The position numbers and the translations under genes were made by a program. Shown piece by piece: positions 3,018-60,920 of a stretch of 64,000 bases of DNA (within the stretch, counting starts at the first letter, position 1; each line of letters starts with the position of its first letter). Source of the DNA: Alphaproteobacteria bacterium. Its GTDB lineage: Bacteria; Pseudomonadota; Alphaproteobacteria; JANQMY01. A model generated the notes under the pieces. The model was given only the letters and a program-made list of their open reading frames with translations. It was not told where the DNA came from and ran no database searches. The stretch covers positions 122,170 to 186,169 of the forward strand of contig JANQPL010000014.1 of NCBI GenBank assembly GCA_028289425.1, read 5' to 3'.

Positions 3018-3941
3018 TCAGCGCAGGTGATTGCCGACAATCTCTTCCGACACCTCGGTCAAGCGTCGCGCTAGTTCCTTATCGCGCGCATACTTACTCG
3101 GCGTTTGGGGATTGCAATCCGAAAAGTACAATCCGCTCACCCCGTCCAGTGACGGATGCGTTGCCACGTAACACTGGGTGGCCGCGCCCTGTGGAATTGT
3201 CCGCATCATCGGCAACAGCAGCACGCCCAAGGCCATGGAAAACAGACCCTCCATATTGCGCCCCAGGTTCGTGGCGATCACACCGGGGTGCAGCGAGTTT
3301 GCCGTGACGGACGTATCTTTCAGGCGCTCCGACAGGTCCAAGGCAAAAAGCGCATTGGCAAGCTTGGATTGTCCGTAGGCGCCCCAGGCGGAATACCCGT
3401 CTTCTCCGGAGAGATTGTCGAATTGTATGCCCCCCTTGGGCGCTTGTTGGTGCGCGGAACTCGACAGCATGACGATACGGCCGGCCGGTGCGTCCAGAAC
3501 TTGTGGCAACAGCCGGTTCACCAGAATGAAATGGCCAAGATGATTTGTGACGAATTGCAGTTCCAGGCCGTAGCGTTGTTCCAGCCGGGGCAACGCCATA
3601 ATCCCCGCATTGCAGATCAGCATATCGATGGGCGTATCAAGGCGCCTCACATCGTCCGAGCACGCGGTAACACTGTCAAAATCCGACAGCTCACAGGCAA
3701 CAGGCGTCGTTTTGCCTTTGACACTTGCGCAGGCTTCGGCTGCTTTTTCCTGGGTCCTGGCGGCACCGATCACATGGGCGCCGCGCATTGCCAGCACCCG
3801 CATGGTTTCAAGGCCCAGGCCCGAATTGCACCCGGTGACCAGGGCGGTCTTGCCGGAGAGATCAGTTCCCGCCGTTACCTGCTCGGCGGTCGACCGCCGG
3901 TTGAACGCGCTTTTGGGTGGATTTGTTTCGCGGGCGGCCAT
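3018..3941 (-). CDS. Short-chain dehydrogenase/reductase (SDR) family oxidoreductase.
   Basis: Gly-rich NAD(P) motif LSGKTALVTGCNSGLGLE and a classical SDR length of 307 aa. Confidence 0.8.
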   Translation of the reverse strand: MAARETNPPKSAFNRRSTAEQVTAGTDLSGKTALVTGCNSGLGLETMRVLAMRGAHVIGAARTQEKAAEACASVKGKTTPVACELSDFDSVTACSDDVRRLDTPIDMLICNAGIMALPRLEQRYGLELQFVTNHLGHFILVNRLLPQVLDAPAGRIVMLSSSAHQQAPKGGIQFDNLSGEDGYSAWGAYGQSKLANALFALDLSERLKDTSVTANSLHPGVIATNLGRNMEGLFSMALGVLLLPMMRTIPQGAATQCYVATHPSLDGVSGLYFSDCNPQTPSKYARDKELARRLTEVSEEIVGNHLR

Positions 3942-5385: not shown

Positions 5386-5457
5386 CCACAATTCCGGTTC
5401 ATGTTATTTACCGATGCTGGGGAAATTAGACGTTCAAACGCTTGTCGTGGGGGATGA

Positions 5458-5952
5458 ATGCCTCGTCTTTTGTTTGCCATGATCTGCTTGGCCTTGGCCG
5501 CCTATCCGACCATTGCCGGCGCCAAATGTTCCGGCGAGGAACAAGGTTTTGTGAAATCGCGCTTGGGCGAAATGCCGGTCGACATCGTCTTCGACAACCG
5601 GTCGAGCGACTCGCTGACCCTTTATTGGATCGACTATGAAGGCAAGCGGCAAAAATATGCGACCATCAAACCACGCACCACTTTCACCCAATCCACATTC
5701 ATAACGCACCCTTGGGCCCTGGCACGGGGCACGAACGATTGCTATGGCTTGTTTTGGCCGGACGGCCAGACCCGCACAATCGTCATTGAATCGCTTTACG
5801 ATGTAAGGACGGGTCCTTTGTGGGGGGATGAGGACGCCGCCGACGTATGTCCCGGTAAATGTTCCGAATTTGAAGCCCGGTGGACCGGTGAGTGGCGCAA
5901 TGTGATCCCCGCCGTGCGCTCCGCCTGCCAATGCGTCGGCGGGAAAGGGTAG
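5458..5952 (+). CDS. Secreted protein with a von Hippel-Lindau beta-domain-like fold.
   Basis: N-terminal signal peptide MPRLLFAMICLALAAYPTIAGA. The segment VFDNRSSDSLTLYWIDYEGKRQKYATIKP...HPW aligns to the pVHL beta-domain pattern [28 protein letters not shown]...HLW. Confidence 0.5.
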   Translation: MPRLLFAMICLALAAYPTIAGAKCSGEEQGFVKSRLGEMPVDIVFDNRSSDSLTLYWIDYEGKRQKYATIKPRTTFTQSTFITHPWALARGTNDCYGLFWPDGQTRTIVIESLYDVRTGPLWGDEDAADVCPGKCSEFEARWTGEWRNVIPAVRSACQCVGGKG

Positions 5953-6299
5953 CACGGAGCGTGCCTTACCCTACAGATGTCGCCCCAAACTTGATTTGGG
6001 GCCCACAAACACCATAGCCGATGCTCTGACGCCAGGGAACCAAGCTACCCAGTAGACACAAATCGAAGGCGACAGTGGCTATGGGCCCCAGCTTTCGCTG
6101 GGGCGACAGGATGCGTATGGCTTTCCGCCAGCCAAACCCATGACGTTATCCAATTGCGAACTGAGAAGGCCAATAACACTCTTTCAATTGATCTATGGCA
6201 ATCGATCAACCGTTGACCTGGATCATGGTTTCCCATGGTGGCTTTCGAACATGATGGTCAAATCCCGACCAACACCGTTTCGAAGGAGCAAGAACCGCC

Positions 6300-7545: not shown

Positions 7546-9300
7546 TCAGCCCCGAGAATATTTCGCCATGCGGTCGCGCAAGGGGGGCTTGAGGATCTTG
7601 CCGTTGGCGTTGCGCTCCAGCGGCTCCTCCTGGGTTTCGATGGCGATCGGCACTTTGAAAGAGGCGAGCTGGCCGGACACATGGGCTTGCAGCTCTTCTT
7701 GCGTTGCCTTTTGCCCCGGGGCGAGCTGCACGATCGCCCCCACTTCTTCGCCCAACACTTTGTGCGGGATACCCACGACCGCGGCGTCCATTACCGCCGG
7801 GTGATTGTAAAGCGCGTCTTCCACCTCGACGCAGTAGACGTTTTCACCGCCGCGGATCAACATGTCCTTGGCCCGGTCGAGAATGTAAACGAACCCTTCT
7901 TCGTCCATGCGCACGAGATCGCCACTTTTCAACCATCCGTCCTCGAATGATTTTGCGGTCGCCTCCGGCTTGTTCCAGTAGCCCTTCACCACATTGGGGC
8001 CTTTGATCCACAATTCACCCACGTCGCCCTGTGGCAACTCGTTGCCATCGCTATCGACCACTTTAAGGTCGACCACTGGCACCGCGACACCGGCGCTGTC
8101 GGGACGGTTCACATAATCCTCCCCGCTGTGCTGGGTGGTGATCGCCGAGGTTTCGGTAAGCCCATAGCCTTGACCGGGCTGCACGTTGGGAAACGCTTCT
8201 TTGATGCGGCGAACCAGCTCCGGTGAGCTGGGCGCACCGCCATAGGACACGCTTTCTACCGCCGACAAATCGTATTTGGAGAAGTTGGGGGATTCGAGCA
8301 CCTGCCAAACGATCGCCGGAACGCCACCGAAGGCGTTGATGCGTTCGCGTTCCATGATCTGCATGGCCTCTTCCACTTCCCACTTGTACATCATGACAAG
8401 CTTGGCGCCGCCCGCCAGCACAGGCACCAAAATCGAGTAACACCCGGTCGCGTGAAACAGCGGCACAGAAATCAGCATGGCCCGCTGGGGATCGTCAGGG
8501 CTGGGCGTCGGCGGCATTTCTCCCCGGCGCATAAAGGCGCGCGCGCCGCCCAAAAGTGTGCTCATCAAATTGGTGGACACATTTCGATGGGTACCCAACG
8601 CGCCTTTCGGCTTGCCGGTCGTCCCTGACGTATAGAAGATGGTCATATCGTCATCAGGCTGAATATCGGCAGGCGGCAGGCCGAGATCTTCAAGGCCCGC
8701 ATAATCGGACGTTCGGCCTACCAAGTCTTCGAAGGCGTCGGCGCGGCCGAGCTTGTCGCGCGGGCAGCGCACGCCGATCAATCCGCGCAGCTCCAACCCA
8801 TACACATGGGGCTCAAGCTCCTGGAGCTTACGGCCGTCTGCGATCACCACGCAGGATCCCGAATCCTGTATGCCGTATTCCATTTCCGGGCCGGTCCACC
8901 AGGCATTGAGCGGCACGATAATCGCGCCTAAAGACACTGTCGCCCAAAAGACTACCGACCATTCGGGATAGTTCCGCATGATGAGGCAAACCCGGTCGCC
9001 TTTTTTGATGCCGTATTTGTCGGCCAGCACATGGGCGAATTTCTTCACCGCCTTGGTGTGGGCTGCGAAGGTGACGCGCTCATCCTCGTAGACCATGTAG
9101 TCCCGGTCCGCCCACGCCTCGGATAATGCAAAAATGTCCCTCAAGGTCGCCGGCGCGTTTTTATACGTACGGATATCGACCCCGCGAATGTTCACGGTTT
9201 CCATCTCGAAGGGCGACCCTTCTGCGGTTAAGAAGGCATGGGCCTCGTCGACGGTCATGGCGGGCCAAGCAGTATTCTCAGATGACATGTGCTTCCTCAC
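7546..9300 (-). CDS. AMP-dependent synthetase/ligase (acyl-CoA synthetase).
   Basis: AMP-binding motif YTSGTTGKPKGA and a C-terminal GWLKSGDLVRMDEEGFVYILDRAKDMLIRGGENVY motif. 584 aa. Confidence 0.85.
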   Translation of the reverse strand: MRKHMSSENTAWPAMTVDEAHAFLTAEGSPFEMETVNIRGVDIRTYKNAPATLRDIFALSEAWADRDYMVYEDERVTFAAHTKAVKKFAHVLADKYGIKKGDRVCLIMRNYPEWSVVFWATVSLGAIIVPLNAWWTGPEMEYGIQDSGSCVVIADGRKLQELEPHVYGLELRGLIGVRCPRDKLGRADAFEDLVGRTSDYAGLEDLGLPPADIQPDDDMTIFYTSGTTGKPKGALGTHRNVSTNLMSTLLGGARAFMRRGEMPPTPSPDDPQRAMLISVPLFHATGCYSILVPVLAGGAKLVMMYKWEVEEAMQIMERERINAFGGVPAIVWQVLESPNFSKYDLSAVESVSYGGAPSSPELVRRIKEAFPNVQPGQGYGLTETSAITTQHSGEDYVNRPDSAGVAVPVVDLKVVDSDGNELPQGDVGELWIKGPNVVKGYWNKPEATAKSFEDGWLKSGDLVRMDEEGFVYILDRAKDMLIRGGENVYCVEVEDALYNHPAVMDAAVVGIPHKVLGEEVGAIVQLAPGQKATQEELQAHVSGQLASFKVPIAIETQEEPLERNANGKILKPPLRDRMAKYSRG

Positions 9301-9440
9301 TCCTATTATCCGCGCTTGATGCCCCAGTTGCGGCCCCTAATCAAGTTCGCCTCACGGGATTTTCAATTGACGCTTACCTAATCGAAGCGGAGCCCCTATA
9401 GTCCCCACCAAAATATTGGCACCGTTACAGGAGGATCCAC

Positions 9441-10337
9441 ATGGCCCGCATGCCCGCAATGTCTCTCGCCGCCGTTCCCACCCGGCGCCAAAGAACCCTC
9501 GAAGTCGCGACGGAAGCGGAGAAGCGGGGCTTTGCCGGCCTGTTCTGCCCAAGCCTGGGCGACCCCATCGCGCTGTGCCAATCCATTGCCCATGTAACCA
9601 ACGAAATCACCTTCGGCACCGCCATTCAGCCTATCTACTATCGGCACCCGGTCGAACTGGCGCGCACCTCCGCCTTTATCAACGAAATCAGCAATGGCCG
9701 GTTCCGCCTGGGCATCGGCGTGAGCCACGGGCCCGTCTATCAGCGCTATGGCCTCAGTGTCGGCAAGCCATTGTCCGATATTCGCGACTATGTGAACGCC
9801 ATGCGGGAAGCGGAAAAAGAGGCAGGCCCCCTGCCGCCCATCACGCTTGCCACACTGCGCGACAAAATGTTGGATCTGGCGCTTGAGATTTCCGACGGCG
9901 CGGTCTGGGCCAATGGCTGCCGTAGCAATATGCCGAAGCAATTGAAAGTCACCGAGGGCAAAGAAAACTTCTTCATTGGCGACATGATCCCCACCGTGAT
10001 CGATGACGACAAAGAAGCCGCTGCTGCCGTGAACAGAAAAACGCTGACGGGATATGTTCAGCTTCCCAACTATCGCAACTATTGGCGCGCCTGCGGATAC
10101 GTTGAAGAAATGGACGCTATCGAACAAGCAATCGAAGCCAAAGAATTCGACAAACTGCCAAGCCTGATGAGCGACAAGTGGTTGTCGGACAACACCCTTT
10201 ACGGCAGTGCTACGGAAGTGCGGGATGGCATCGAAGCGTGGTTTGATTCAGGTGTCAGCACACCGATTATCGTGCCGTCGTCCACCAAAGGCGGACAAAT
10301 GAAAGCGATCGAGGAGTTCTTTGCGCTGTACGCTTAG
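9441..10337 (+). CDS. LLM-class (luciferase-like) flavin-dependent oxidoreductase.
   Basis: Luciferase-like monooxygenase TIM-barrel pattern (RFRLGIGVSHGP; length and composition). 298 aa. Confidence 0.65.
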   Translation: MARMPAMSLAAVPTRRQRTLEVATEAEKRGFAGLFCPSLGDPIALCQSIAHVTNEITFGTAIQPIYYRHPVELARTSAFINEISNGRFRLGIGVSHGPVYQRYGLSVGKPLSDIRDYVNAMREAEKEAGPLPPITLATLRDKMLDLALEISDGAVWANGCRSNMPKQLKVTEGKENFFIGDMIPTVIDDDKEAAAAVNRKTLTGYVQLPNYRNYWRACGYVEEMDAIEQAIEAKEFDKLPSLMSDKWLSDNTLYGSATEVRDGIEAWFDSGVSTPIIVPSSTKGGQMKAIEEFFALYA

Positions 10338-10345
10338 CGAACCAT

Positions 10346-11050
10346 ATGAGCACCTCCGCGCAGACCTATGATTTGCACAAAATCCGCTCTTCTCTCGAGA
10401 AGGACGGATTTTGTCTCGTCAAAGAGGCATTTTCGCCGCGACAAGTTAGGGTCTTGAGCAGTCTTTTCGAGACGTTCGGAGAGACAAGCCGTGTTGAGAG
10501 TTGTCCGCCCGAAATCTCTACACTCTTGCGATCCGCCGGTTTCGCAAACCTAGTCTCTGAGCTGCATGGACGCAAACCATATTTGGTCCGTTTGCTGACA
10601 TTCGCGAAGTCGTCTAAAACAAACTGGTTTGTGCCTTGGCATCAGGATCGGACCATCGCGGTTCGGGAACGGTCTAAAACGCCTGGGTTCGACCGGTGGA
10701 CGATGAAAAACGCCGTTCCCCACGCGGAAGCGCCGGTCGGATTGCTGGAGCGGATGCTGACACTGCGCATTCATCTGGACGATACGCCAAAAGACGGCGG
10801 CGCTTTGGAGGTTTTGGCCGGAAGCCAAAGATTGGGCCGGCTTGACCACGGTGCCATTGCCGATCTTCTTGGCAGAACCAAACCAATAACCTGCTGTGCA
10901 AAAACGGGCGACATTTTGCTGATGAAACCACTTCTGGTGCATCGTTCAAAACGAACGAGCGACCAGCGGCGGCGTGTTCTGCATTTGGAGTTTTCTCCTG
11001 ATCGACTGCCGCCGCCCCTTCAGTGGCGGATGAGCATGGCTCTAGACTAA
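10346..11050 (+). CDS. Phytanoyl-CoA dioxygenase (PhyH) family Fe(II)/2-oxoglutarate oxygenase.
   Basis: WHQD iron-binding motif, a distal His in ALEVLAGSQ...H, and RVLHLEF at the C-terminus. Confidence 0.7.
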   Translation: MSTSAQTYDLHKIRSSLEKDGFCLVKEAFSPRQVRVLSSLFETFGETSRVESCPPEISTLLRSAGFANLVSELHGRKPYLVRLLTFAKSSKTNWFVPWHQDRTIAVRERSKTPGFDRWTMKNAVPHAEAPVGLLERMLTLRIHLDDTPKDGGALEVLAGSQRLGRLDHGAIADLLGRTKPITCCAKTGDILLMKPLLVHRSKRTSDQRRRVLHLEFSPDRLPPPLQWRMSMALD

Positions 11051-35085: not shown

Positions 35086-35574
35086 TTAGCGCCTTCTCTT
35101 TCGCTTCTTACGGTCAGCCTTGTCTTTTTCAACGGGATAAACTTGATGCTCTGGGTCCCACCACAACAATCTTAAGATGTTTTCATGCTGCGGCCACCAA
35201 AACGCCCAAGCGCGATTTTTGCCAGTAAGTCGCAGTGAAATCAGCTCATCGAATTGGTCCATGCCCAATTTCTGCAACCTAACTTGAGCACTGCTATGTA
35301 GTTTATTGACCCCAATTCTGTGAGATCCTCCAGATTTTATTTGATCCCAGTTCTTACCTTCAAATTCGCGGAGCTTGTTGATTACTTCTAAGGCCTTGCC
35401 ACTCTCGGCAAGTTGGGACCAGCCAAAAGGACCTTCGCTGTCAGTGTTTTCAAACTTCCAGGCGAGCATCATATCGCTTTTTTTAGACGGAGCAGCGACT
35501 TTTGGGAGGCTCTTTGTATCGCGAATCCTAAATTCCGATTTTGGCCGGCGGGCTTTCCCCTTGCTTCTTTTCAC
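35086..35574 (-). CDS. Putative toxin partner of the Panacea antitoxin; 162 aa with K/R-rich termini and no recognisable domain.
   Basis: Its GTG start overlaps the antitoxin TAG stop by 1 nt (TAGTG on the minus strand). Both the N- and C-termini are basic. It lies in a low-GC islet. In-frame ATG codons also occur at 35472 and 35469. Confidence 0.5.
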   Translation of the reverse strand: MKRSKGKARRPKSEFRIRDTKSLPKVAAPSKKSDMMLAWKFENTDSEGPFGWSQLAESGKALEVINKLREFEGKNWDQIKSGGSHRIGVNKLHSSAQVRLQKLGMDQFDELISLRLTGKNRAWAFWWPQHENILRLLWWDPEHQVYPVEKDKADRKKRKRRR

Positions 35575-36005
35575 TAGAGCAAGCCGCTATAGTACTCGGC
35601 CATTGCGGAGTGAGAAATTTCTCTGTTTGAACGCGCGTCTTCCGGCAAACCCTCTCGCGCTTCCTTCCAGGGCCGTTCTCGATGAGTTAGCGCACTGAGC
35701 TGCGCTGCGCTCTTCTTCCCGTAGTATTCTACAACGACCTCAATCGTCTCTTTTTCTTCGTCTGATAGGTTACGAATGTCCCCGCTTGGAGGAGTGGAGA
35801 TATTGAACCGCCCTTTGTGCCAATCATATAGCTCGCGTACAACCGGCCCATTCGCCCACGCAAGAACCCTCTCTTTGAAAATCGGTTTCTCATCCCAAAC
35901 CAAAGACCAGGCTTGTGAGTAGTAGACGAGCTTTTGAAGCTTCATTGCACTCATCTTGCCGTGAAGCTTCACGATGTATCGAGCTACATCGAATACGTTG
36001 GACAT
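35574..36005 (-). CDS. Panacea-domain (DUF4065) SocA-like antitoxin.
   Basis: The N-terminal pattern MSNVFDVARYIVKLHG..MSAMKLQKLVYYSQAWSLVW...AWANGPVV matches the DUF4065 / SocA consensus. The start is set at the ATG at 36005. The ORF track begins at 36047. Confidence 0.75.
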   Translation of the reverse strand: MSNVFDVARYIVKLHGKMSAMKLQKLVYYSQAWSLVWDEKPIFKERVLAWANGPVVRELYDWHKGRFNISTPPSGDIRNLSDEEKETIEVVVEYYGKKSAAQLSALTHRERPWKEAREGLPEDARSNREISHSAMAEYYSGLL

Positions 36006-36038
36006 GGCGCGAATTCCTCGTACGAACCAACATAGCAA

Positions 36039-36056
36039 TTGATTCATTCAAATCAA
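36039..36056. promoter_or_regulatory. Palindromic candidate operator TTGATTCATTCAAATCAA, just upstream of the antitoxin start.
   Basis: TTGATT / AATCAA inverted repeat 34 bp upstream of the antitoxin ATG on the minus strand, within an AT-rich promoter region. Confidence 0.4.
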
Positions 36057-41631: not shown

Positions 41632-42353
41632 ACCGATTCCTTTCTTGCGAGGTATACGGTTTGAGTGAACGGTCTGTTGTCTTGAAGCGGATTTGTGAAA
41701 GTGACGGGTTCCGCGCGCGCCCAGCCGAAGACGGCCGCCAATCGGTCCGTAAAGTCATTGTCAGGCGGCACGTTCGACCACAACCCCATGACGCCCTTGG
41801 GATGGAGATGCGCTGCAAGGCCCGCCATTCCGTACTCGGAGTAAAACCCGTCACTGCGTTCATCGAGCAGCATATCCGGCGCATGATCAATGTCGATCAG
41901 GATAGCGTGAAACAAGCGACCCGGCACGCTAGCATCGAAACCGTCGGCAGAAGCGGCAAGGGCGAAGAAATCGCCCTGCACGATCCGGCACCGGCCATCA
42001 TCTTTCAACGGCGGCGCAAGCGGCACCAATCCTTGGTCATGCCAATCGATCACCGCCTCCAGGTATTCAATAACCAACAGCGACCCAACCGAATCGTTTC
42101 GCAGCACCTCCTGAGCGGTGTAACCAAGCCCCAATCCGCCGACCACCACGTCCAACCCGTTGCCATCCGCTTCCGCCAACCCAAGTCGGGCAAGCGCAAT
42201 TTCCGACTCTGTGAATAGGCTGGACATAAGATGTTCATCGCCGAGCATGATCTCAAACACATCCGTGTCCAGCGACAAGACACGGCGCCGTCGCAGGCTG
42301 ATCGGCCCGATAGGGGTCGGCCGGTAGTCGAGTTCTTCGAAAAGGTTGCTCAT
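41628..42353 (-). CDS. Spermidine-synthase-like (PABS fold) methyltransferase-fold protein.
   Basis: Gly-rich VVGGLGLGYTAQE motif. 241 aa. Its stop overlaps the aminoacylase start by 4 bp. Confidence 0.45.
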   Translation of the reverse strand: MSNLFEELDYRPTPIGPISLRRRRVLSLDTDVFEIMLGDEHLMSSLFTESEIALARLGLAEADGNGLDVVVGGLGLGYTAQEVLRNDSVGSLLVIEYLEAVIDWHDQGLVPLAPPLKDDGRCRIVQGDFFALAASADGFDASVPGRLFHAILIDIDHAPDMLLDERSDGFYSEYGMAGLAAHLHPKGVMGLWSNVPPDNDFTDRLAAVFGWARAEPVTFTNPLQDNRPFTQTVYLARKESV

Positions 42354-42377
42354 GGCGCTTCCCCCTTGCCGCAGCCG

Positions 42378-42923
42378 CTAAGGCACCAAATCGCAGCGGC
42401 CGGAGGCCAACGCAGAAACCACCTTGGCCAGAGATTGGGCGAGTGCATCGCCATCCGTCGAAATCCGGTGATCGGTGTAGTCATTCGACTCGGTGAAGGC
42501 TTTGTGCATATGCCGAACGCCTTCTATGGGAAACTTATCAGCATCCGGACGTTCCGATGCCCGTTTGACAGTCTCGCCAAGACTCGCATGAAGAATCACG
42601 TAGCGACAGGGAACCGTCCCCGACAGAGATTCCAAAAATGTCTTTGCGAACCACGGACCAATGACCCCGTCGACGATGGCGGTGTAGCCCCCGATGGCAA
42701 ACCCCTCGGCAGCCATCGCCGCGGCGCGAATTACTGTTTCGTTTTGGTGGTGACTTTCGGGACGTGTCGGGTCAACATAATGGCAGATGGACGCATGAAA
42801 GGAATCCACGTCAAGCAGCACACCGTGGGAGTCTTCCTCCGCCAAGCGGCGTGCAATCGCCGTCTTTCCGGTGCCAGGGCACCCGGTGACAACGTCAATT
42901 CTTCCCTTTTTCAGTGTGCTCAT
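42378..42923 (-). CDS. P-loop NTPase / small-molecule kinase-like protein.
   Basis: Walker A motif GCPGTGKTAIA. 181 aa. Confidence 0.5.
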   Translation of the reverse strand: MSTLKKGRIDVVTGCPGTGKTAIARRLAEEDSHGVLLDVDSFHASICHYVDPTRPESHHQNETVIRAAAMAAEGFAIGGYTAIVDGVIGPWFAKTFLESLSGTVPCRYVILHASLGETVKRASERPDADKFPIEGVRHMHKAFTESNDYTDHRISTDGDALAQSLAKVVSALASGRCDLVP

Positions 42924-42941
42924 CGGCTGAGCTTAGAGCGG

Positions 42942-44945
42942 TTAGGCCTCCGCCCGCAAATCGAGCCAGCCAATCTCCTGTTCAGTCAAGGGAACGGTCA
43001 AAGCCTCAAAAGACGATTTGGTCTCAGCGATGGTGCGCGGACCGATCAGCGCAAACGGTTCGAAGGGCTGGGCCAACACGTAAGCCAACGCAATATGAAC
43101 GGGTGCGACGCCTTTTTGTCCCGCCAACTCATAGCACCGCTTGCGGCGTTCAAAATTTGCGTCCGAATACCAGGCATTGACCAATTCCATGTCGTCCTTC
43201 TTGTCGGGGCCGGCACGATCAGTAAAAAATCCGCGCGCTTGGGACGACCAGCACATCAGCGCAATTTCATTTTTGGTCAACCAATCGCGATAGGCGTCTT
43301 CCGATGCCGCGATGCATCCCGGCCAGACAGGATTTTCCATGCGGGCCAGACTGAAATTGTTGGAAACGGCTTCAAATCCCAACAACCCCTTCGAGTCGGC
43401 ATAGGCGTTTGCCTCGTCGATACGCTCTGCCGTCCAATTGGATCCGCCATAGGCCTTGATGCGCCCCGCGGCCACGTGCTCATTGATCGCATCGACGAAT
43501 TCGCCCACCGGTACATCCAGATTGTCCCGATGAAGGAAGTAGACGTCCACATAATCCGTTTGCAGACGGTCGAGCGACTCAATAAGTTCAGGTGTAACGG
43601 TTTGCGGAAAGCAATTGGGGCTGTGCGCGCCCTTCCCAATCACCACCAACTCATCCCGAATACCTCGATTGGTCATCCACTGACCCAAAAGCTTCTCCAT
43701 AATGCCCTCGCCGTAGAGGTGGGCCGTGTCGAAGCAGTTGCCGCCGCGCTCAACGAAATCGTCAAACATGACGGCCGCATGGGGCATGGTCACTTGATTG
43801 TCGCAGCCCATCACCAGGCGAGAGATTTGCTTGTTCACCTTGCCGAAACTGCGATATGGCATCGGATCGACCGGTACCACCTTCAACGGGCCGCCATGGA
43901 CCGTACGGGTAACCGCTTTGGGGCGCTCTGCATCATAGGTCAGTCGAATCTGGCTGCGCCAAGCATCCAGCGTGGCCATATTGCCCAGCGTGTCGTTCCA
44001 GGACATTTCGTCCGTCTGCTGCCTGCCCGAAGCGATTGCATCGGCGATAACCTCCGCTTCAACAGCGTAAATGTTTCGCGTCTCATCGACCTTCATGCTT
44101 TCCGGTTTTTTGCCGTGGTGCGTCAACACCACCTCACCGAATGTCTTGCCATGCTGGGCCGGATGCCACGGCGCCGGCAGATGCAATTGTCCCTTATCGC
44201 CAAACACCGTGACCGTATTGTCGAGCCAAACCGACACGGCAGTAGAGACCTGGGCGACGATGCCGTTTTCAAACTGCATCGTGGCCGCCGTCCACTGGTC
44301 GACACCGGTTTCACCCAACTCGCCGACCGCTTTGACCCGAACGGGATCGAGGAACGGAACGCCTTGAACCGCGCCCGCTACAAGGCGGCTCATGGAAACG
44401 GGATAGCACCCCACATCCAATATACCTCCGCCCCCGAGCGCATTGCTGAAGAGCCGGCTGTTGGCATCGAAAGGCGCCTCAAATCCGAAACTTGCTCGGA
44501 TCATCCGCACGTCGCCGATAGCCCCGTCGCGAATCAAGTCAATCGCCTTTTTGGTTTGCGGATGGCAGCGATACATAAACGCTTCCATAGCGAAGACGCC
44601 GTTTTCCTCTGCCGCGTTGAAGATCGCCATGGCTTCCGCGTGGTTCATGCCGATGGGTTTTTCGCACAGCACGTGTTTGCCTGCGCGGGCGGTCTTGATG
44701 GCCCATTCCGCATGGCCGGGATGAGGGTTGGCGATGTAGACAGCTTCGACCGCCGGGTCGTTCAAAAGCGACTCGTACGAGCCGTGCGGCGTTGTGCCGT
44801 CGCCGTGGGCGGCGAATTTATCGGCACTTTCCTGCGAACGGCTGCCGACGGCCGCCAGCGTGCCCTTGTCGGTCGTCTGCAGCGCTTTTGCAAACTGCTT
44901 TGCAATGCTGCCGGTTCCCAAAATACCCCACTTGATGCTTCCCAC
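42942..44945 (-). CDS. Fusion protein: N-terminal Gfo/Idh/MocA oxidoreductase and C-terminal aldo/keto reductase.
   Basis: N-terminus KWGILGTGSIAKQFA...VYIANPHPGHAEW...CEKP is Gfo/Idh/MocA-like. The C-terminal half has an AKR-like TIM barrel (GCDNQV...FDTAHLYGEG). 667 aa in a single ORF. Confidence 0.7.
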   Translation of the reverse strand: MGSIKWGILGTGSIAKQFAKALQTTDKGTLAAVGSRSQESADKFAAHGDGTTPHGSYESLLNDPAVEAVYIANPHPGHAEWAIKTARAGKHVLCEKPIGMNHAEAMAIFNAAEENGVFAMEAFMYRCHPQTKKAIDLIRDGAIGDVRMIRASFGFEAPFDANSRLFSNALGGGGILDVGCYPVSMSRLVAGAVQGVPFLDPVRVKAVGELGETGVDQWTAATMQFENGIVAQVSTAVSVWLDNTVTVFGDKGQLHLPAPWHPAQHGKTFGEVVLTHHGKKPESMKVDETRNIYAVEAEVIADAIASGRQQTDEMSWNDTLGNMATLDAWRSQIRLTYDAERPKAVTRTVHGGPLKVVPVDPMPYRSFGKVNKQISRLVMGCDNQVTMPHAAVMFDDFVERGGNCFDTAHLYGEGIMEKLLGQWMTNRGIRDELVVIGKGAHSPNCFPQTVTPELIESLDRLQTDYVDVYFLHRDNLDVPVGEFVDAINEHVAAGRIKAYGGSNWTAERIDEANAYADSKGLLGFEAVSNNFSLARMENPVWPGCIAASEDAYRDWLTKNEIALMCWSSQARGFFTDRAGPDKKDDMELVNAWYSDANFERRKRCYELAGQKGVAPVHIALAYVLAQPFEPFALIGPRTIAETKSSFEALTVPLTEQEIGWLDLRAEA

Positions 44946-45065
44946 TTGTTCGCCTTTCTCAATGCCGCCAAACCCGCATGGTTAAGCGGATCTTTACGTA
45001 AACCCTCTTTAGTAGCTTGTCACCAAAACACAACGCCAAAAGTAAGGACCGAAGGGGTTTTTCTT

Positions 45066-46106
45066 ATGTCTCAGTTGCAGGGGTTTTTGTGGTCCATGGG
45101 GCGATGCGCCACCAAGGCGGTGGCGGACACGATCAGCGCACACACACCCGCCCATGCCACGAGCTGGGTCGACACCACTCAGATGATGAAAAGCCCGGCC
45201 TATTACATCAAGCACGCGCCGGTACCATTGGTGATGACACTGCACCATCCGCAGTATTGCGATACCTTCGGCAAGCTTACCCAGCAGTTCGCCGATGCTC
45301 CGGTGGTGCACACGGTGCGCGATCCGATTTCGAACCTCAAGAGTTTCGCGAAAACATTCCTGACATCCTTCGTCGCCCGGCGCGTTGATGAAGCGGGTCA
45401 ACTTTCGGCCCAGGGCAAGTCGGTAGCCGACGCCATCAACCCGGCGGCACTTGAAGAATGGTTGCTGCCGACGGCAGATCTTTGGCGCCAATACAATGCT
45501 TACAAGAATTCGCCTCACTTGATTGTCGATTTTGCGGATTTGGGCGAAGACCACTTCGTTGGGACCATGGAAGAGATCATCGGATTTCTGGGTCTGACAA
45601 TTGAAACCCCTATCACGTGGACCACGGAAGCCAACACGGAATGCGACCGCTTCTTCGTAGGCTATCAGCGCAGCTTCACCCTCATGGACAAGAAACTCGA
45701 TCTGCAGTTCAGCCGCTGGCCGAACCATTGGGGCGAGTTTGGAATGACCACATTGGGGGAATTGAGGTCGGAGGCCCTGCGTGAGGTGTGCGGCGATGAT
45801 CCCATCTACATTCACATTGCCAGCGACCAGCTTTGCACATTCGGCCGGCTGGATTACGAGTGCGCGACATTCGCGGCCTATATGGCCGAGGATGCAGTGC
45901 GCGAGGCCATCGCCCATCAGGTCGCAACCGACTACGCCAATACCGCCGAAATTGTCGCCAAGGACCTTACCGGGCTTCAGAGCCGATTGATCGCAAAATT
46001 CGAGAAAACGAGCCGCAATGGCGTGAAACGTTTCCTCAAACTCAAGCCAGAGCTTGAAGCGCGTTGGGCAGGCTGGCAAGAGCTGATGGAACGGAAAGCG
46101 GCGTAA
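45066..46106 (+). CDS. Hypothetical protein; weak sulfotransferase-like features.
   Basis: 346 aa. An RDP-containing segment (VVHTVRDPISNLKS) resembles the 3'-phosphate-binding motif of PAPS sulfotransferases. An APS kinase gene lies 4 kb away. It is the only real part of a 1291-aa ORF in the track. Confidence 0.35.
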   Translation: MSQLQGFLWSMGRCATKAVADTISAHTPAHATSWVDTTQMMKSPAYYIKHAPVPLVMTLHHPQYCDTFGKLTQQFADAPVVHTVRDPISNLKSFAKTFLTSFVARRVDEAGQLSAQGKSVADAINPAALEEWLLPTADLWRQYNAYKNSPHLIVDFADLGEDHFVGTMEEIIGFLGLTIETPITWTTEANTECDRFFVGYQRSFTLMDKKLDLQFSRWPNHWGEFGMTTLGELRSEALREVCGDDPIYIHIASDQLCTFGRLDYECATFAAYMAEDAVREAIAHQVATDYANTAEIVAKDLTGLQSRLIAKFEKTSRNGVKRFLKLKPELEARWAGWQELMERKAA

Positions 46107-46734
46107 AGAGCGCGCGCATCATGTCTATGTCTTGCTCGCGGAAGGGGGCAAGACGTTCCGGATGCCACATAATTCCGCGGATCGGATAGCCCTCGACTGT
46201 AATTGCCTTGACGATGCCATCCGATGATCGTCCGTCTACAGATATTCTATCATTCGAGTCCGCGGTCCCGAAATTGTGGTAACTGTTGACGGCAATCGCC
46301 TTGCCGCAAAAATCGACCGTTTGTTTTTTCTGAACATGTCCATCGACGTGCTTAAGCGGAACACCGAAATGGTGTTGAATGATTTGCATGCCTCGGCATA
46401 CGCCTAAGAGCGGCACATGATGTTGGATCGCATGCTCCAACAAGTTGGTTTCAACGGCATCGCGTTCTGGTGCGTCGCCACCGTATGCCACAAGATCATT
46501 GCCGCCCGTGAGTAAGATGCCCGTTGGTTTCAAGTTGCGTATGAACACGTCGACCAGTTGAGGATTGTTCGGCATGGCAATGCCCACATATCCCGCCTGA
46601 GACAAAAACGCTGCCCATTGCTGGTCCAGCGCATCGCGGCGCTCGCCGGTCTTCATATCCGTTACAACGCGTTGGGTAATTAGTACGATTGGCGCCCTGG
46701 TCACGCAATCACATCCACTTTGCGATTGGCGCAA
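46042..46734 (-). CDS. Class I glutamine amidotransferase-like, gamma-glutamyl-GABA hydrolase (PuuD) family.
   Basis: GATase1 nucleophile motif GVCRGMQ and the HH pair. The start is uncertain. Confidence 0.65.
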   Translation of the reverse strand: MRQSQSGCDCVTRAPIVLITQRVVTDMKTGERRDALDQQWAAFLSQAGYVGIAMPNNPQLVDVFIRNLKPTGILLTGGNDLVAYGGDAPERDAVETNLLEHAIQHHVPLLGVCRGMQIIQHHFGVPLKHVDGHVQKKQTVDFCGKAIAVNSYHNFGTADSNDRISVDGRSSDGIVKAITVEGYPIRGIMWHPERLAPFREQDIDMMRALFTPLSVPSALASLPNALQALA

Positions 46735-49085
46735 TCAATGCGCAGCGTCTTAGCGCCCGACCATCTTTCGAAGTTGCTCTCGCCGGCGCCGATCACCGCC
46801 GGAATTTGAAGCTCGCCCGCGCGAATTGCCATGTGAGAATTCACACCGCCATAGGCCGTGATCAGCCCGCCGATCTTGTGGGAAAACAACCAATCAAAAC
46901 CGGGATCCGCATTGGGCAGCATGACAATCGCCCCGTCCAATCCGGCAAAATTGTCCGGCGCGACGGTATTTGCTTGGATCGACCGTTGGGTGATGAAGTT
47001 CGGCTCATCCGCCCCCATTTCCATCTGCCAAACATCGTCGGCACCAGTGATCAGACTTGGCAAGATCAATGCCTTGGTTTTTTCATATTGCGCGCGGCCT
47101 GATTCAATGGCGCGTCCCAACACATCTTTCGGATCATTGACGGTGCCATAAAGCTCATGCACGGCCTGGATGTTGGCAAACGCCAAATCCTCACGCGTAA
47201 ATCCGTGGCGCGCCCCGACCTCGGCAAAAATCTCCATCGCGTCCGATAGATTGCGCGTGAAATGAAACTTCGCCTTTTCGCGGCCTTCAATGCCGGCTTT
47301 CAGGAAATTGAATAATCCAACCACATTGTGGCTGAGATTATGCTCTTTCAGCAAAGCACTGATCTCATTCATCTGTTGAAGCGTCAGCGCAAAGGCCGGA
47401 TGAGAAGCCCTGGCGCCATCTGCCTGTTCGTCCCACCTAAAGTAAGTGTCGGGTGCTGCGTCGTAGCGTGGCGAACAAATGTCGTATGTGCCCGGACGAA
47501 GGTGGCCATATCGATGGAGAAAAGCGCTTTTGGTGAGATTTTGGAAATCCGCAGCGATTTCTCCACTCACTGTCGTAAGGCTGCTCAAGAAGGCTTGGTA
47601 GTCTTCCTCACTCAATGCCCCCGCCGTGACCAAGGATCTAAGCAACTGCATGGCAATAAAGCCGGCGCGGGCAAGCCCCGCAAACGGCAAGGTGCCGTAC
47701 CGCTTGCAATCTTCCAGCAGCCAATAGACCTGGGAGATGGCGTCGTCCTGCTTGGCGCAAATTGTTTCATAACGCCGTTGCAACGTCTCGATCTTGGCAA
47801 GGTCCTTTCGCCACAATCCATCGTCGGCGATGATCCGATTGGTGAGGTGCCTCAGGCTTTCTTCGAGAACCAGACGATCGTTTTCGGAAAATCCGTACGC
47901 TGTTAATTCGCGTAGTCGTTCCGGCAGGTCGAGCGTGTAGCAGGAAAACAGGATCTCGAACTCAACCTTGTCATGAAGCGATGGCCGCTCACAGAGCGCA
48001 TCGATGTAGTAATTGGCCAAACGCTCGGCGAGGTCATCCGGCACGTCATTGGGAATGAAAGAATTGAAACTTACCCGAACGTCAATGAACGGCATGCCGT
48101 AGAAGTCGCACAGAAGCGGAAAGCTGCGCAGGTTCCGATACCCGTAATTGTGCCGCTGATAGGCCCAGATCGAATCCGTCACCAATTCCCGATAGAGCGA
48201 TAAAGCGAGAGGTTTCGGCCGCAATCCAATGATTTCCGCCGGGTTCCAATCGGGCATGACACCGAAGACTGTGCGCCGACCAAAAAGGTAAGGATGCGGT
48301 TTTGCGCGTTCCGCTACGCGACGCGCTACAGCACCAAGCATTATGTTGTGCTGCTGAATATCGACACCGCGCGCGCCGTTCTCGACCAGTGGACGTGCCT
48401 GCAACAAAAACAATGCGCCCTTCCGATCGATGGCAAACTCTATATCCAACCGGTCGTTGCCGGTCAGCCGTTCCACTTCCTTAAGGAGCGCCGCCACCTT
48501 TTCGCCAATCGGATCGTCGACCTGCTCGGCCGAGCGGCTGATGATCAGTGTGCGATGATCGTTCGACGTACCGGAGGTAATGAACTCGGTATCGCCTTCC
48601 TCGCTGAAATTCAGAACTATGTATGGCGCGCCCGTGTTCGGATCGTAGGAAAACGCAACCCCGCTTGCCACCACGTCGCGCAGCATTGGTTGGATGAGAA
48701 CCTGGTGATCGGTGTGATCATCGCCATACGATGCGTATACCTGCTCGACGGCAAGCTCAAGCGCCCGTGGGCCCTCCACATTGAGCACACTTAGATATTC
48801 ACCTGCGTGTGATGCGTCTGCGCCGTCTTCCCCGAGGGCGCTGCTGCGCACAATCATTGGGGCTGCCGCCCATTCATTCCTGAAAATGCGGTTCACCATC
48901 TGGCGCCGGTTGTCGCGCCAGGCGCCGAGCGTCACGACTTCAGCCGGCAGAATCGTCGCGGAACGGATCTGCGCCGAAAGCCCGTGCAGTGTGTCGGCTT
49001 TACTTCCAAAGCGAAAAGCCTCGGGGCGCTGTCGTTCAAGGTCGAGCGCGTACCGATTCGAAGCCGACGACATTGCATTTTTCAT
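46701..49085 (-). CDS. PEP-utilising enzyme with rifampin-phosphotransferase-like architecture: N-terminal PPDK_N ATP-grasp domain, a central domain, and a C-terminal His swivel domain, with no PEP/pyruvate TIM barrel.
   Basis: N-terminal PEP-synthase ATP-grasp signature (FGSKADTL...SSALGEDG). C-terminal mobile-domain catalytic His in GGVNSHMAIRAGELQIPAV. 794 aa. Confidence 0.7.
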   Translation of the reverse strand: MKNAMSSASNRYALDLERQRPEAFRFGSKADTLHGLSAQIRSATILPAEVVTLGAWRDNRRQMVNRIFRNEWAAAPMIVRSSALGEDGADASHAGEYLSVLNVEGPRALELAVEQVYASYGDDHTDHQVLIQPMLRDVVASGVAFSYDPNTGAPYIVLNFSEEGDTEFITSGTSNDHRTLIISRSAEQVDDPIGEKVAALLKEVERLTGNDRLDIEFAIDRKGALFLLQARPLVENGARGVDIQQHNIMLGAVARRVAERAKPHPYLFGRRTVFGVMPDWNPAEIIGLRPKPLALSLYRELVTDSIWAYQRHNYGYRNLRSFPLLCDFYGMPFIDVRVSFNSFIPNDVPDDLAERLANYYIDALCERPSLHDKVEFEILFSCYTLDLPERLRELTAYGFSENDRLVLEESLRHLTNRIIADDGLWRKDLAKIETLQRRYETICAKQDDAISQVYWLLEDCKRYGTLPFAGLARAGFIAMQLLRSLVTAGALSEEDYQAFLSSLTTVSGEIAADFQNLTKSAFLHRYGHLRPGTYDICSPRYDAAPDTYFRWDEQADGARASHPAFALTLQQMNEISALLKEHNLSHNVVGLFNFLKAGIEGREKAKFHFTRNLSDAMEIFAEVGARHGFTREDLAFANIQAVHELYGTVNDPKDVLGRAIESGRAQYEKTKALILPSLITGADDVWQMEMGADEPNFITQRSIQANTVAPDNFAGLDGAIVMLPNADPGFDWLFSHKIGGLITAYGGVNSHMAIRAGELQIPAVIGAGESNFERWSGAKTLRIDCANRKVDVIA

Positions 49086-49098
49086 TGTCGTAAAGCCG

Positions 49099-49854
49099 TC
49101 ACGCGGCGCGTTTTGCCGCCCAAACGCGGGTTGTATAAGGCACCTGTATGCTCGGAGCTTTCAATGCCCGCAGTTGGTTTTCGATTTTGTCAATGATGGC
49201 GCCAAAGCCATCGCCTGCCTGCCGATGCAGCGTTGCATGCGAACGCCACGCTTCCACAACATCGTCGACCTGCTGCTCGTGCAAGATCGTGCCTTCGATC
49301 TTCTCTACGGGGCCGAACAAACCACTCTTGTTGATTTCGTCAGTCTGGTCTTCACGACGCGTGCCGTATCCATATTCGGGGATTGCATCAGAAATGATGC
49401 CTTCGATTTCCGCCTGGATCGGATCGGAAAGATCCCGATGGTTCCACATGGCCGCAAACCAACCACCTGGCTTTAGAATGCGGGCCGTTTCCGTGAGAGA
49501 TGCTTGACGATCTGTGACGTTAAAGGACGAACCGAAGGTGACAATATCGAACATGCTGTCGTCCTGACCGGTATCTTCCGCCGTGTTTTCGATGTACGCG
49601 ACCACGTTCGGCAACTGCTTTGTCCGCTGTTGGCCCAGCGCTCTCATATTGTCGTTTGGCTCGATAGCCGTCACTTCAAGACCACGGTCAGCCAACATTA
49701 ATGTGAGATGCGCTACGCCCGCGCCGATATCACAAGCACGCGCCCCTTGTTTGGCACCGCACGTGACCAGCAATTCGTCAATCGCGCTGTCAGAGTAATC
49801 TGGGCGCTTCAAATAAGCCTGCGCTAAATCCGAATAATCCCAAGCGGTTTTCAT
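49099..49854 (-). CDS. Class I SAM-dependent methyltransferase.
   Basis: Motif I DIGAGVAHLT. The start is set at the ATG at 49854 (MKTAWDYS). The ORF track begins at 49965. Confidence 0.7.
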   Translation of the reverse strand: MKTAWDYSDLAQAYLKRPDYSDSAIDELLVTCGAKQGARACDIGAGVAHLTLMLADRGLEVTAIEPNDNMRALGQQRTKQLPNVVAYIENTAEDTGQDDSMFDIVTFGSSFNVTDRQASLTETARILKPGGWFAAMWNHRDLSDPIQAEIEGIISDAIPEYGYGTRREDQTDEINKSGLFGPVEKIEGTILHEQQVDDVVEAWRSHATLHRQAGDGFGAIIDKIENQLRALKAPSIQVPYTTRVWAAKRAA

Positions 49855-49980
49855 TGTTAACCCCGTGCTCAAAAAGTTTTGGTAACCAAGAACTAGGCGA
49901 AAGCTCTTGAAAATTCGTTTCGATTTTTCGGGAATTCGGAAAGAAAAAATTAACAAACAGATCATGTTGGTGTACGGATC

Positions 49981-50595
49981 ATGGTTAAACGCGCGTTAAT
50001 AGAACAATTCGCCGATGCAGAGCGGATAAGGGACGACTCCCCTCTTCAGAGGTCGGACCAGGGATGTGTTGTTTGGATTACGGGGCTTTCCGGTGCCGGT
50101 AAATCAACGGTCGGGAACATCTTGAAATCACGGCTATTGGCCAAAGGGCGGCGCACAATATTCCTTGACGGCGATGCGCTTCGGGGCGTCTTCGCCATTG
50201 GTGACCGTTTCGATCCCAATGCGCGGCTTGAACTTGCCCGGAGCTATGGGCGCTTGTGCCAATTACTGGCATCTCAAGGGCATACGGTAATTTGTGCCAC
50301 CATCTCCATGCGCAACGTGGTCTATGACTGGAACCGCAAGAACCTGCCGAATTATGTAGAGGTGTTCTTGGACGTGCCGCTGGAAGTACGCCAGGCCCGT
50401 GATCCGAAAGGATATTACGCGGCGGTCCACAACGGCACACTGAACAATTTCGCGGGTCAAGACCAGCGGGTCGATGTACCGCCGTCACCCGACATTCATA
50501 TCGCACCGGAGTCGGCCGCCACGCCCGAAGAGATCTGCGATCAGATCGAAGCGAAGCTGGATAAAAATTTATCCGTAAAGGGACAAGTCGCCTGA
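49981..50595 (+). CDS. cysC: Adenylyl-sulfate (APS) kinase.
   Basis: P-loop ITGLSGAGKST and LDGDALR motifs. 204 aa. It faces the methyltransferase gene across a divergent AT-rich promoter region. Confidence 0.8.
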   Translation: MVKRALIEQFADAERIRDDSPLQRSDQGCVVWITGLSGAGKSTVGNILKSRLLAKGRRTIFLDGDALRGVFAIGDRFDPNARLELARSYGRLCQLLASQGHTVICATISMRNVVYDWNRKNLPNYVEVFLDVPLEVRQARDPKGYYAAVHNGTLNNFAGQDQRVDVPPSPDIHIAPESAATPEEICDQIEAKLDKNLSVKGQVA

Positions 50596-51321
50596 GGCCA
50601 CGCGCCGTTCGTAGTAGGCGAGATCTTCTTCGTTATCGCACTCGCCCCAGCTTCCCTGGACGGGCGACGTCCCGATTTTCACGCCTTCCATAATCAGCCG
50701 CTGCAGAAGGCTCGTCATGTCAAGTTTGTCCCGCACGGCACCGATCAAAGGTTCAATCACGCTTTTGGTTTTCGACCAGCCTTCGGGCGTGAATTTCAAC
50801 AGGCCCATATATTGCCCTTTGATGTCCGCCATCGAATTTGTCTTGCCGCCAATCTCGGTGAGATGACCGTTGTCATCCGTCTGGAATGTTTCTGCATCGC
50901 TCAGTGGATCATCGAATCGGTCTTTCCACAGCGCCGCCCAATGCGGATCGTAGCTGATGGCGATATCGTCCGTACACCGCGATAACCTGATGACCGTCAA
51001 CGGGTCATAGAAGATGTCGCTGTAGCTTACGATGGTCGGTCCCTGCGCTAGCCATTCATCGGCGGCGGACAGGCTTGCCACCATGTTGGTTTCGGACCAA
51101 CGCGGATTGTGGAAACGCGTTTCGCCGAATTCCTCCAGCATATCCGCCTTATAGCCCGTGCACAGCGCAATGTGGCTGACGCCGGCTTCTTCCAGCGATG
51201 CGAGTTGGCGTTCGATCAAAGATCGGCCCGCCAGCTTAATCAGCCCTTTGGGCCGCGCTGCCGTGCTGTTTCCCATGCGGCTGCCACGACCTGCCGCAAG
51301 AATGAGCCCTCTCGCCCCCAT
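50569..51321 (-). CDS. Sugar-phosphate / phospho-base nucleotidyltransferase (LicC / GlmU-N-like).
   Basis: LAAGRGSRMG nucleotide-binding loop. The start is set at the ATG at 51321. The ORF track begins at 51537. Confidence 0.6.
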   Translation of the reverse strand: MGARGLILAAGRGSRMGNSTAARPKGLIKLAGRSLIERQLASLEEAGVSHIALCTGYKADMLEEFGETRFHNPRWSETNMVASLSAADEWLAQGPTIVSYSDIFYDPLTVIRLSRCTDDIAISYDPHWAALWKDRFDDPLSDAETFQTDDNGHLTEIGGKTNSMADIKGQYMGLLKFTPEGWSKTKSVIEPLIGAVRDKLDMTSLLQRLIMEGVKIGTSPVQGSWGECDNEEDLAYYERRVASGDLSLYG

Positions 51322-51481
51322 TTCCCTCAACTCCAGCTGTGAAACCTCGCCAGCAGTATGTGGAAACGAGGGTAAATCGCTGCTTAACCGGGCCAAATAG
51401 TGCAGAAACCCTAACCTATTCGCCCCTCCGCTTGGCTTTCTGCTATAGTTGCCTGCGCTAAAGACCGCCAGGGAGACACAG

Positions 51482-52078
51482 ATGACGTCAGCGACAACGG
51501 ATAAACGGGCAAGTTTCACGGCTATGCAGGACGGCACGCCGGAGGACTACAAGATCATTAGCGAAAGCTCACGACCTTTTAGTCAGGACCTCCCAAATCG
51601 CGTCCTTTCGCATCTTAAGTTGTTGGGCGATGACCACGGTGGCTTCGCAATCGATCGTCTTACCCACTCGCTGCAATCAGCCACGCTTGCGCACCGGGCA
51701 GGAAAAGATGAGGAATATGTGGTCTGCGCATTGCTTCACGACATCGGGGATTCGCTGGCGTGTTATAACCACGCAGAATTGGCGGCCACCATGCTTTATC
51801 CCTTCGTGTCGGAAGCGAACCATTGGATGGTCGAAAAGCACGGCATTTTTCAAGGGTACTATTTCTTCCATCATTTGGGCCTTGATCGGGACATGCGGGA
51901 GGAATATCGCGGGCACCCTCATTTCGAACACTGCGCCCAATTCTGTCACCAATTCGATCAGAACGCCTTCGATCCGGACTACGACACCATGCCGCTCGAG
52001 GCTTTCGAACCGATGGTCCAGCGCGTGATGGCCAAGCCAAAACGCAGTATCTATATGCGGGAAAGCAAAGCGGCATAA
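51482..52078 (+). CDS. HD-domain protein (PhnZ-like HD phosphohydrolase/oxygenase superfamily).
   Basis: H...HD...H...H...D pattern (LAHRAG, LLHDIGD, HWMVEKHG, FHHLGLD). 198 aa. Confidence 0.55.
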   Translation: MTSATTDKRASFTAMQDGTPEDYKIISESSRPFSQDLPNRVLSHLKLLGDDHGGFAIDRLTHSLQSATLAHRAGKDEEYVVCALLHDIGDSLACYNHAELAATMLYPFVSEANHWMVEKHGIFQGYYFFHHLGLDRDMREEYRGHPHFEHCAQFCHQFDQNAFDPDYDTMPLEAFEPMVQRVMAKPKRSIYMRESKAA

Positions 52079-57963: not shown

Positions 57964-57980
57964 CACCACTTGTTGGAGCG

Positions 57981-59537: not shown

Positions 59538-59648
59538 CCGCCGGGAGCCACTTTTCAGACTCGTCGATTGGCGCTAGTCTTTATTCGCACCGGGCCGCTT
59601 CACTTTTGGATATCTTCCTCGCCCAACCAATACAACGGAAAACGGATC

Positions 59649-60284: not shown

Positions 60285-60357
60285 CTGATCGTCAGAAACA
60301 CCTATACTGCGGCCCGGCGTGAGGCGCACGCGCCCCGCGCCCCTTTGAGTAAGACCT

Positions 60358-60918: not shown

Positions 60919-60920
60919 TC

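Follow-up and report, generated by a model that had tools for sequence, protein, structure and literature searches.

A predicted secreted alphaproteobacterial protein combining a VHL beta-domain homologue with an MVL-type lectin repeat

Prolyl hydroxylation is classically read by the beta-domain of the human von Hippel-Lindau protein (pVHL), which most proteolysis-targeting chimera (PROTAC) drugs use as their handle. The hydroxyproline (Hyp) site of pVHL comprises Trp88, Tyr98, His110, Ser111, His115 and Trp117; Ser111 and His115 bond the Hyp hydroxyl and Tyr98 bonds the carbonyl (PMC9528729). VHL-like domains also occur in prokaryotes, where their function is described as unknown (PMC7736814), and a secreted VHL-beta protein of Litorilituus sediminis (EMK97_00595) was treated in a purely in silico paper (PMC9002001). 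The mannan-binding lectin MVL of Microcystis viridis contains two repeats and works as a homodimer with four glycan sites; its minimal ligand includes the N-acetylglucosamine (GlcNAc) disaccharide GlcNAc-beta-1,4-GlcNAc (PMC3407925). In the Microcystis lectin, the repeat fold binds the mannose (Man)-containing Man-GlcNAc-GlcNAc core of oligomannosides. Here, a stretch of 64,000 nucleotides from an uncultured alphaproteobacterium (GCA_028289425.1, contig JANQPL010000014.1, positions 122,170 to 186,169; hereafter the window) was analyzed, which carries a gene whose product joins both domains. The initial annotation of this gene had called bacterial VHL-like proteins poorly characterized; this agrees with the literature cited above and with our own search, which found no paper on a VHL-MVL fusion or on the function of any bacterial VHL-like domain. 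The gene and the parts of its product are as follows (aa, amino acid positions).

5458..5952, + strand: complete gene of 164 codons plus stop (open reading frame list; two Pfam domains above their gathering scores)
5458..5523, + strand: predicted Sec signal peptide, aa 1-22, MPRLLFAMICLALAAYPTIAGA, with cleavage before K23 (n/h/c layout by inspection)
5524..5793, + strand: VHL beta-domain-like seven-stranded beta-sandwich, aa ~23-112, with pocket residues W57, Y60, Y67, T80, F81, H84 and W86
5794..5937, + strand: single MVL-type (mannan-binding lectin) repeat, aa ~113-160, beta-alpha-beta-beta, with the motifs GPLW...A...WTGEW

The 164-aa product contains the segment IVFDNRSSDSLTLYWIDYEGKRQKYATIKP...THPWALAR, which had originally been likened to the pVHL beta-domain by the spacing of its residues. 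A Pfam search supported this assignment: PF01847 matched with 39.9 bits (gathering score 21, E=4.4e-10), covering aa 32-88 and profile positions 1-57 of 82. When the single sequence was searched against the PDB with phmmer, human pVHL was found at E~1e-3 with about 22% identity, and a profile built from 32 bacterial relatives retrieved pVHL at E=2.6e-11 and no other match; the same profile search found no solved member of the bacterial family. An AlphaFold2 model, built with the alignment of the 32 relatives, reached a mean pLDDT (predicted local distance difference test) of 87.5, values above 90 for both domains and a pTM (predicted template modeling score) of 0.67. It places seven strands between aa 40 and 110 in a pVHL-like beta-sandwich, and Foldseek with this model returned pVHL for all of the top 50 PDB matches (E~5e-8, probability 1.00). 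Residues ~23-112 are thus a homologue of the pVHL beta-domain, by homology and not by motif alone.

The weak single-sequence match and the presence of a 173-aa antisense open reading frame (ORF; 5434..5955, - strand), which covers the whole gene, might suggest that a chance likeness had been picked up in an unrelated beta-rich protein, or that the antisense ORF is the real gene. Both explanations can be regarded as refuted by a Pfam score far above threshold, by a PDB profile search yielding pVHL alone and by the coding signals of the + frame. Among four orthologues the ratio of nonsynonymous to synonymous substitution rates (dN/dS) in the + frame was 0.05-0.10 with dS saturated, and GC content at third codon positions (GC3) was 0.68 as compared to 0.53 for the antisense ORF. 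Hence, the + strand is the coding strand and the antisense ORF is spurious. Judged from these substitution rates, the VHL-MVL gene is under strong purifying selection. Its orthologues share 74-98% identity, and an identical protein sequence was also present on an independent assembly contig of 43.8 kb.

In the alignment with pVHL, W57, Y67, T80, H84 and W86 correspond to Trp88, Tyr98, Ser111, His115 and Trp117, so that on sequence grounds the contact residues are kept with a single Ser-to-Thr replacement at T80; S79 aligns to His110, which in pVHL makes a backbone-only ligand contact. Conservation was counted in 256 VHL-like domain copies from 132 proteins, with the following result for the residues shared with the human domain (PF01847; PDB 1LM8, 4AJY).

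N47, pVHL N78: 97%
W57, pVHL W88: 98%
Y60, pVHL F91: Y/F 84%
G62, pVHL G93: 94%
Y67, pVHL Y98: 80%
T80, pVHL S111: T 91%, S 7%
F81, pVHL Y112: Y/F 94%
H84, pVHL H115: 95%
W86, pVHL W117: 94%

The pocket columns are the best-conserved ones of the VHL-like family; constraint is thus strongest on the surface that forms the ligand site in pVHL. The bacterial consensus motif is Q-x-T-[FY]-x-T-H-P-W as compared to I-H-S-Y-R-G-H-L-W in pVHL. Since W117 and F76 of pVHL belong to an 'aromatic tetrahedron' of the structural core (PMC3688787), part of this conservation could be architectural, which weighs against the binding role proposed below. The Thr/Ser-His pair has no such structural explanation and therefore argues for a retained ligand site.

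Besides its low identity, the bacterial protein differs from pVHL in several respects. An alpha-domain, BC-box or cullin box was found neither by Pfam (E<=10) nor in the model nor in the sequence by eye; an S/T/A/P-L-x3-C/S/A-x3-aliphatic motif was likewise not seen by eye in the product, and the C-terminal H4 helix is missing. The sole helix following the sandwich in the model (aa 124-136) is part of the MVL repeat. As the alpha-domain, BC-box, cullin box and H4 helix are missing, the protein should not bind Elongin C or Cul2; a role as E3-ligase adaptor or substrate receptor of a cullin-RING ligase was ruled out because alpha-domain and BC-box are absent. Furthermore, pVHL is cytosolic or nuclear, whereas the bacterial protein is probably exported behind a signal peptide, and it carries a predicted C24-C95 disulfide and a fused lectin repeat.

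This lectin repeat had been overlooked. The initial annotation had described a lone VHL-like module; its VHL core proved genuine, but the C-terminal third of the protein is an MVL-type repeat, matching PF12151 with 30.6 bits (gathering score 25) and PDB 1zhq with E=2.5e-11. The repeat fold is predicted for aa 113-160 and follows the last strand of the sandwich directly, with no flexible linker. No further Pfam family was detected on the product even at E<=10. The motifs GPLW, D/E-A and T-G-x-W of MVL (PF12151; PDB 1ZHQ/1ZHS) are kept, the conserved positions being GPLW, A127, T143-G144 and W146. The window protein has four additional cysteines, and MVL lacks these pairs. With the MVL repeat, the supposed single VHL-like module becomes a putative glycoconjugate binder made of two modules. 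Both domains are already known to Pfam, and automated pipelines already label such proteins PF01847 + PF12151; it is the fusion that constitutes a new architecture.

By inspection, the N-terminus, MPRLLFAMICLALAAYPTIAGA followed by KC, has a basic n-region and then a hydrophobic core, with Ala occupying positions -3 and -1, and the AlphaFold2 model contains a low-confidence helix at aa 4-12. This layout is kept in five orthologues, with the cleavage motifs AHA/K, SHA/K, AQA/Q and VFA/K, and bears out the earlier view of a protein secreted after a signal peptide. There is no lipobox, since Lys and not Cys follows the cleavage motif; a lipoprotein was thus ruled out. The AxA-type site and the missing lipobox, both judged by inspection, are those of a soluble Sec substrate, and the product is likely to be exported via Sec to the periplasm or beyond. 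Within the family, a crude test detected signal-peptide-like N-termini in 92 of 139 representatives. Additionally, three disulfides were predicted.

C24-C95, in the VHL-like domain: predicted from co-varying Cys columns
C131-C157 and C135-C159, in the MVL-type repeat: predicted from conserved or co-varying Cys

In the VHL-like copies, a Cys located 15-28 residues before the invariant Asn and a Cys in the C95 column were both present in 79 cases, both missing in 149 and discordant in 28. Nearly all of the environmental MVL-like repeats retrieved contain C131 and C157; in MVL-like repeats, C135 also co-varies with C159 (47 both, 37 neither, 4 discordant). We infer that the three bonds may stabilize the protein; the co-varying pairs are consistent with an oxidizing compartment and hence with an exported protein.

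When 1.84 billion cluster representatives (50% identity) were searched in full with HMMER, 2790 VHL-like ones were found at E<=1e-3, of which 352 also passed E<=1e-10. A periplasmic or secreted Hyp-binding module had been called unusual; secreted bacterial VHL-beta proteins as such are not, given a family of this size, matches above the Pfam threshold and the in silico paper mentioned above. Relatives were found in metagenome-assembled genomes of Alphaproteobacteria, Acidobacteriota, Verrucomicrobiota, Planctomycetes, Armatimonadota, Bacteroidota and Myxococcota; the clade of the window protein comprises uncultured Alphaproteobacteria, including one with a 5.3-Mb chromosome. The phage databases IMG/VR and PHROGs contained no VHL-like match, and a phage origin was therefore rejected. 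Other bacterial VHL-beta proteins share the pocket, and many are secreted with a matching Cys pair; what distinguishes the window clade is the additional MVL repeat.

Among the best 150 of the 2790 representatives, architectures ranged from secreted single-domain proteins of about 110 aa through two- and three-domain tandems to giants with up to 12 repeats. In the same set, VHL and MVL domains were joined as VHL-MVL, MVL-VHL, MVL-MVL-VHL, tandem (VHL-MVL)x2 and DM9-DM9-VHL-MVL, and this repeated fusion in varied orders suggests that the modules work together. Further lectin or surface partners identified by Pfam are DM9, RicinB, BACON, SdrD_B/Ig and beta-gamma-crystallin. In the giants P0006-P0010, P0026, P0038, P0058 and P0082 (1700-2140 aa), 3-12 tandem VHL-like domains precede a tail of 950-1350 residues that lies outside the repeats. 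The tail of P0006, the sole giant scanned, gave one weak Ig-like Pfam match, and P0006, P0007 and P0026 have a VHL-like repeat at their very start, with no signal peptide evident. On a 674-kb activated-sludge contig (L016:8001-9006), two tandem genes for 115-aa secreted single-domain VHL-like proteins lie beside a LysR regulator, showing local duplication in the family.

Taken from its sequence and predicted fold, the product is best read as a small, non-catalytic binding protein with two sites. The homology of both parts is well supported on these grounds, and the function of the fusion is put forward as a proposal. We propose a bivalent lectin-like binder, an assignment for which we see an even chance: the MVL repeat would dock on a beta-1,4-linked glycan of the GlcNAc/Man type, and the VHL-like pocket would grip another small group, ring-shaped and carrying a hydroxyl, on that polymer or a neighboring one. 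Candidates for this second ligand would be a Hyp- or Pro-like residue or a sugar. Together, both sites could form a bivalent adaptor or adhesin whose target would be a glycoconjugate, either environmental or part of the cell envelope.

Several observations weigh against this proposal. The window protein has one MVL repeat instead of the two tandem repeats of MVL, and relative to the MVL motifs GPLWSN and TGQW its clade shows S-N replaced by G-D and Q by E beside the conserved Trp; therefore, its sugar specificity may differ, and sugar binding itself is putative. VHL-like domains were also found by Pfam with TIR, caspase, patatin and protein kinase domains as conflict or signaling partners, and the accessory protein of type X retrons contains a VHL-like domain (PMC7736814). 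That form differs in being anchored in the membrane with its VHL domain facing the cytoplasm, and in having an IHF-like DNA-binding domain. The VHL-like domain is a promiscuous binding module and, being found in TIR, caspase, kinase, patatin and retron contexts, its association with lectins need not define its ligand. Moreover, bacterial VHL-like domains have no known ligand.

The retained pocket raises the question of whether the protein is a true extracellular or periplasmic Hyp reader, whose pocket would bind trans-4-hydroxyproline in peptides or glycoproteins while the MVL repeat would read the attached glycan. Conceivable targets are Hyp-rich glycoproteins of algae and plants, proteins resembling collagen, or bacterial substrates of a prolyl 4-hydroxylase (P4H). 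Every Hyp-contact residue of pVHL is retained or conservatively replaced in the most conserved columns of the family, and the fused lectin modules MVL, DM9 and RicinB would suit glycoprotein targets; however, Thr in place of Ser puts an extra methyl group into the pocket. The hydroxylase genes for which a search had been advised were sought in the window and in related loci. No P4H of family PF13640 was found among the 50 window ORFs scanned with Pfam, the region 11.8-31.2 kb (~19 kb) being covered by eye only. The sole dioxygenase of the window is a PhyH-family iron/2-oxoglutarate enzyme (10346-11050) with no sequence relative in the PDB, located 4.4 kb from the VHL-MVL gene inside a conserved metabolic cluster. 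A hidden Markov model (HMM) of 79 P4H homologues was then run against 4083 ORFs from 99 VHL-bearing loci (655 kb), including 80 extra metagenome loci; 98 of the 99 contained no P4H-like ORF.

The exception, L018:1-3713 (Logan SRR22387796), is an inovirus-like fragment with a Phage_CRI/G2P replication protein and Phage_Coat_B. It holds a bona fide P4H-family gene (75-659, - strand) together with a secreted single-domain VHL-like gene (3351-3704, + strand), whose start lies 8 nt beyond the small ORF at 3149-3343, which matches PHROG families of unknown function. Possibly, the phage carries both genes as cargo, with the P4H as writer and the VHL-like protein as reader. This co-occurrence favors Hyp recognition, but the closest relatives of the L018 P4H, on inovirus-like contigs including L100 and L101, are accompanied by no VHL-like ORF. 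In addition, a Pfam scan of 150 non-redundant neighbors from 68 loci revealed no enriched family. As both the P4H and the enrichment scan were negative, gene neighborhood lends no support to a hydroxylase-reader pair. For a target from another organism no P4H linkage would be expected, so the negative results do no more than weaken the idea of a Hyp reader; overall, we consider this explanation unlikely.

The bivalent lectin-like binder must also be compared with a cell-envelope protein, whose MVL repeat would bind the GlcNAc-beta-1,4 backbone of peptidoglycan or chitin-like glycans and whose pocket would bind a stem-peptide or sugar feature. Acting on the wall of its own bacterium or of a competitor, it could serve in the periplasm as a wall-binding factor, or it could inhibit lytic enzymes. 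Known periplasmic inhibitors are likewise small, secreted and disulfide-bonded. The minimal MVL ligand contains the appropriate GlcNAc linkage (PMC3407925), and cell-wall-related Pfam domains co-occur with the VHL-like domain, namely SH3_3, LprI (a lysozyme inhibitor), OmpA, Inhibitor_I36 and, in 6 of 139 representatives, Peptidase_M15_4, although the Peptidase_M15_4 and OmpA count does not separate VHL proteins from MVL-only proteins. No conserved wall-enzyme neighbor was found in the scan of 150 neighbors; the adjacent beta-lactamase-family gene encodes no signal peptide and is linked within the close clade only. Overall, this role seems improbable.

Upstream of the start codon and around the stop codon, two further features were noted.

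5447..5454, + strand: Shine-Dalgarno-like purine-rich stretch GTGGGGGA (GGGGGA), putative, read from the sequence and ending 3 nt before the ATG
5946..6007, + strand: two stable hairpins with no U-tract, which overlap the stop codon and continue past it (RNA fold -27.3 kcal/mol, z=-3.6 as compared to shuffles)

The hairpins were absent from the output of a consensus terminator scan and are possibly a transcript end or stabilizer. A paralogue of the VHL-MVL gene was not found within the 64-kb window. The neighboring genes encode DUF2855, SDR, a beta-lactamase-family hydrolase, a Zn-dependent alcohol dehydrogenase (Zn-ADH), an AMP-binding enzyme, a luciferase-like monooxygenase and PhyH. Linkage to the upstream beta-lactamase-family gene, whose product was judged by eye to lack a signal peptide, occurs in close relatives alone (L001/L002, L004, L015, L019); the downstream Zn-ADH is missing in L004 and L019, and a 38%-identical homologue in L005 has an unrelated gene context. 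A meaningful operon partner was rejected, since linkage is limited to the close clade and the context in L005 differs. The genes at 7546-11050, for the AMP-binding enzyme (- strand), the luciferase-like monooxygenase and PhyH, keep their order in three related genomes (L001/L002, L004 and L019) and probably belong to a small-molecule modification pathway unrelated to the VHL-MVL gene.

Elsewhere in the window, a gene for a SocA/Panacea-domain antitoxin (35574-36047) abuts an unannotated 162-aa ORF (35086-35574); together they form a candidate toxin-antitoxin pair (35086-36047, - strand). A sulfation-related cluster extends from 42231 to 51537. It includes a 1291-aa + strand ORF with a Sulfotransfer_3 match near its C-terminus only (aa 970-1124); most of this ORF is probably non-coding because it overlaps a 667-aa ORF on the - strand (42942-44945) with strong matches to fused GFO_IDH_MocA and aldo-keto reductase domains. 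Nearby ORFs encode a PPDK_N/PEP-utilizer (phosphoenolpyruvate) protein, a methyltransferase, an adenosine phosphosulfate (APS) kinase and a MobA-like nucleotidyltransferase. Positions 55615-61514 encode a penicillin amidase (782 aa) and, after it, a GH3-family (acyl-acid amido synthetase-like) protein; two YceI-like genes around a cytochrome b561 gene come next.

A more far-reaching view, which we regard as speculative and rather doubtful, is that the bacterial VHL-like sandwich is an ancient, secreted module for reading Hyp or Hyp-linked glycans, pocket and lectin repeat together recognizing extracellular Hyp-rich glycoproteins. If so, the Hyp module of animal oxygen sensing would descend from a large bacterial family of extracellular binding proteins, and the P4H and VHL-like genes of L018 would be a writer-reader pair. 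The small, presumably stable and secreted VHL-MVL protein would provide an easy experimental entry to the ancestral ligand of the pocket and to the origin of the animal reader. Should it bind Hyp, bacteria would recognize hydroxyproline outside the cell; should it bind a sugar, it would represent a new lectin family.
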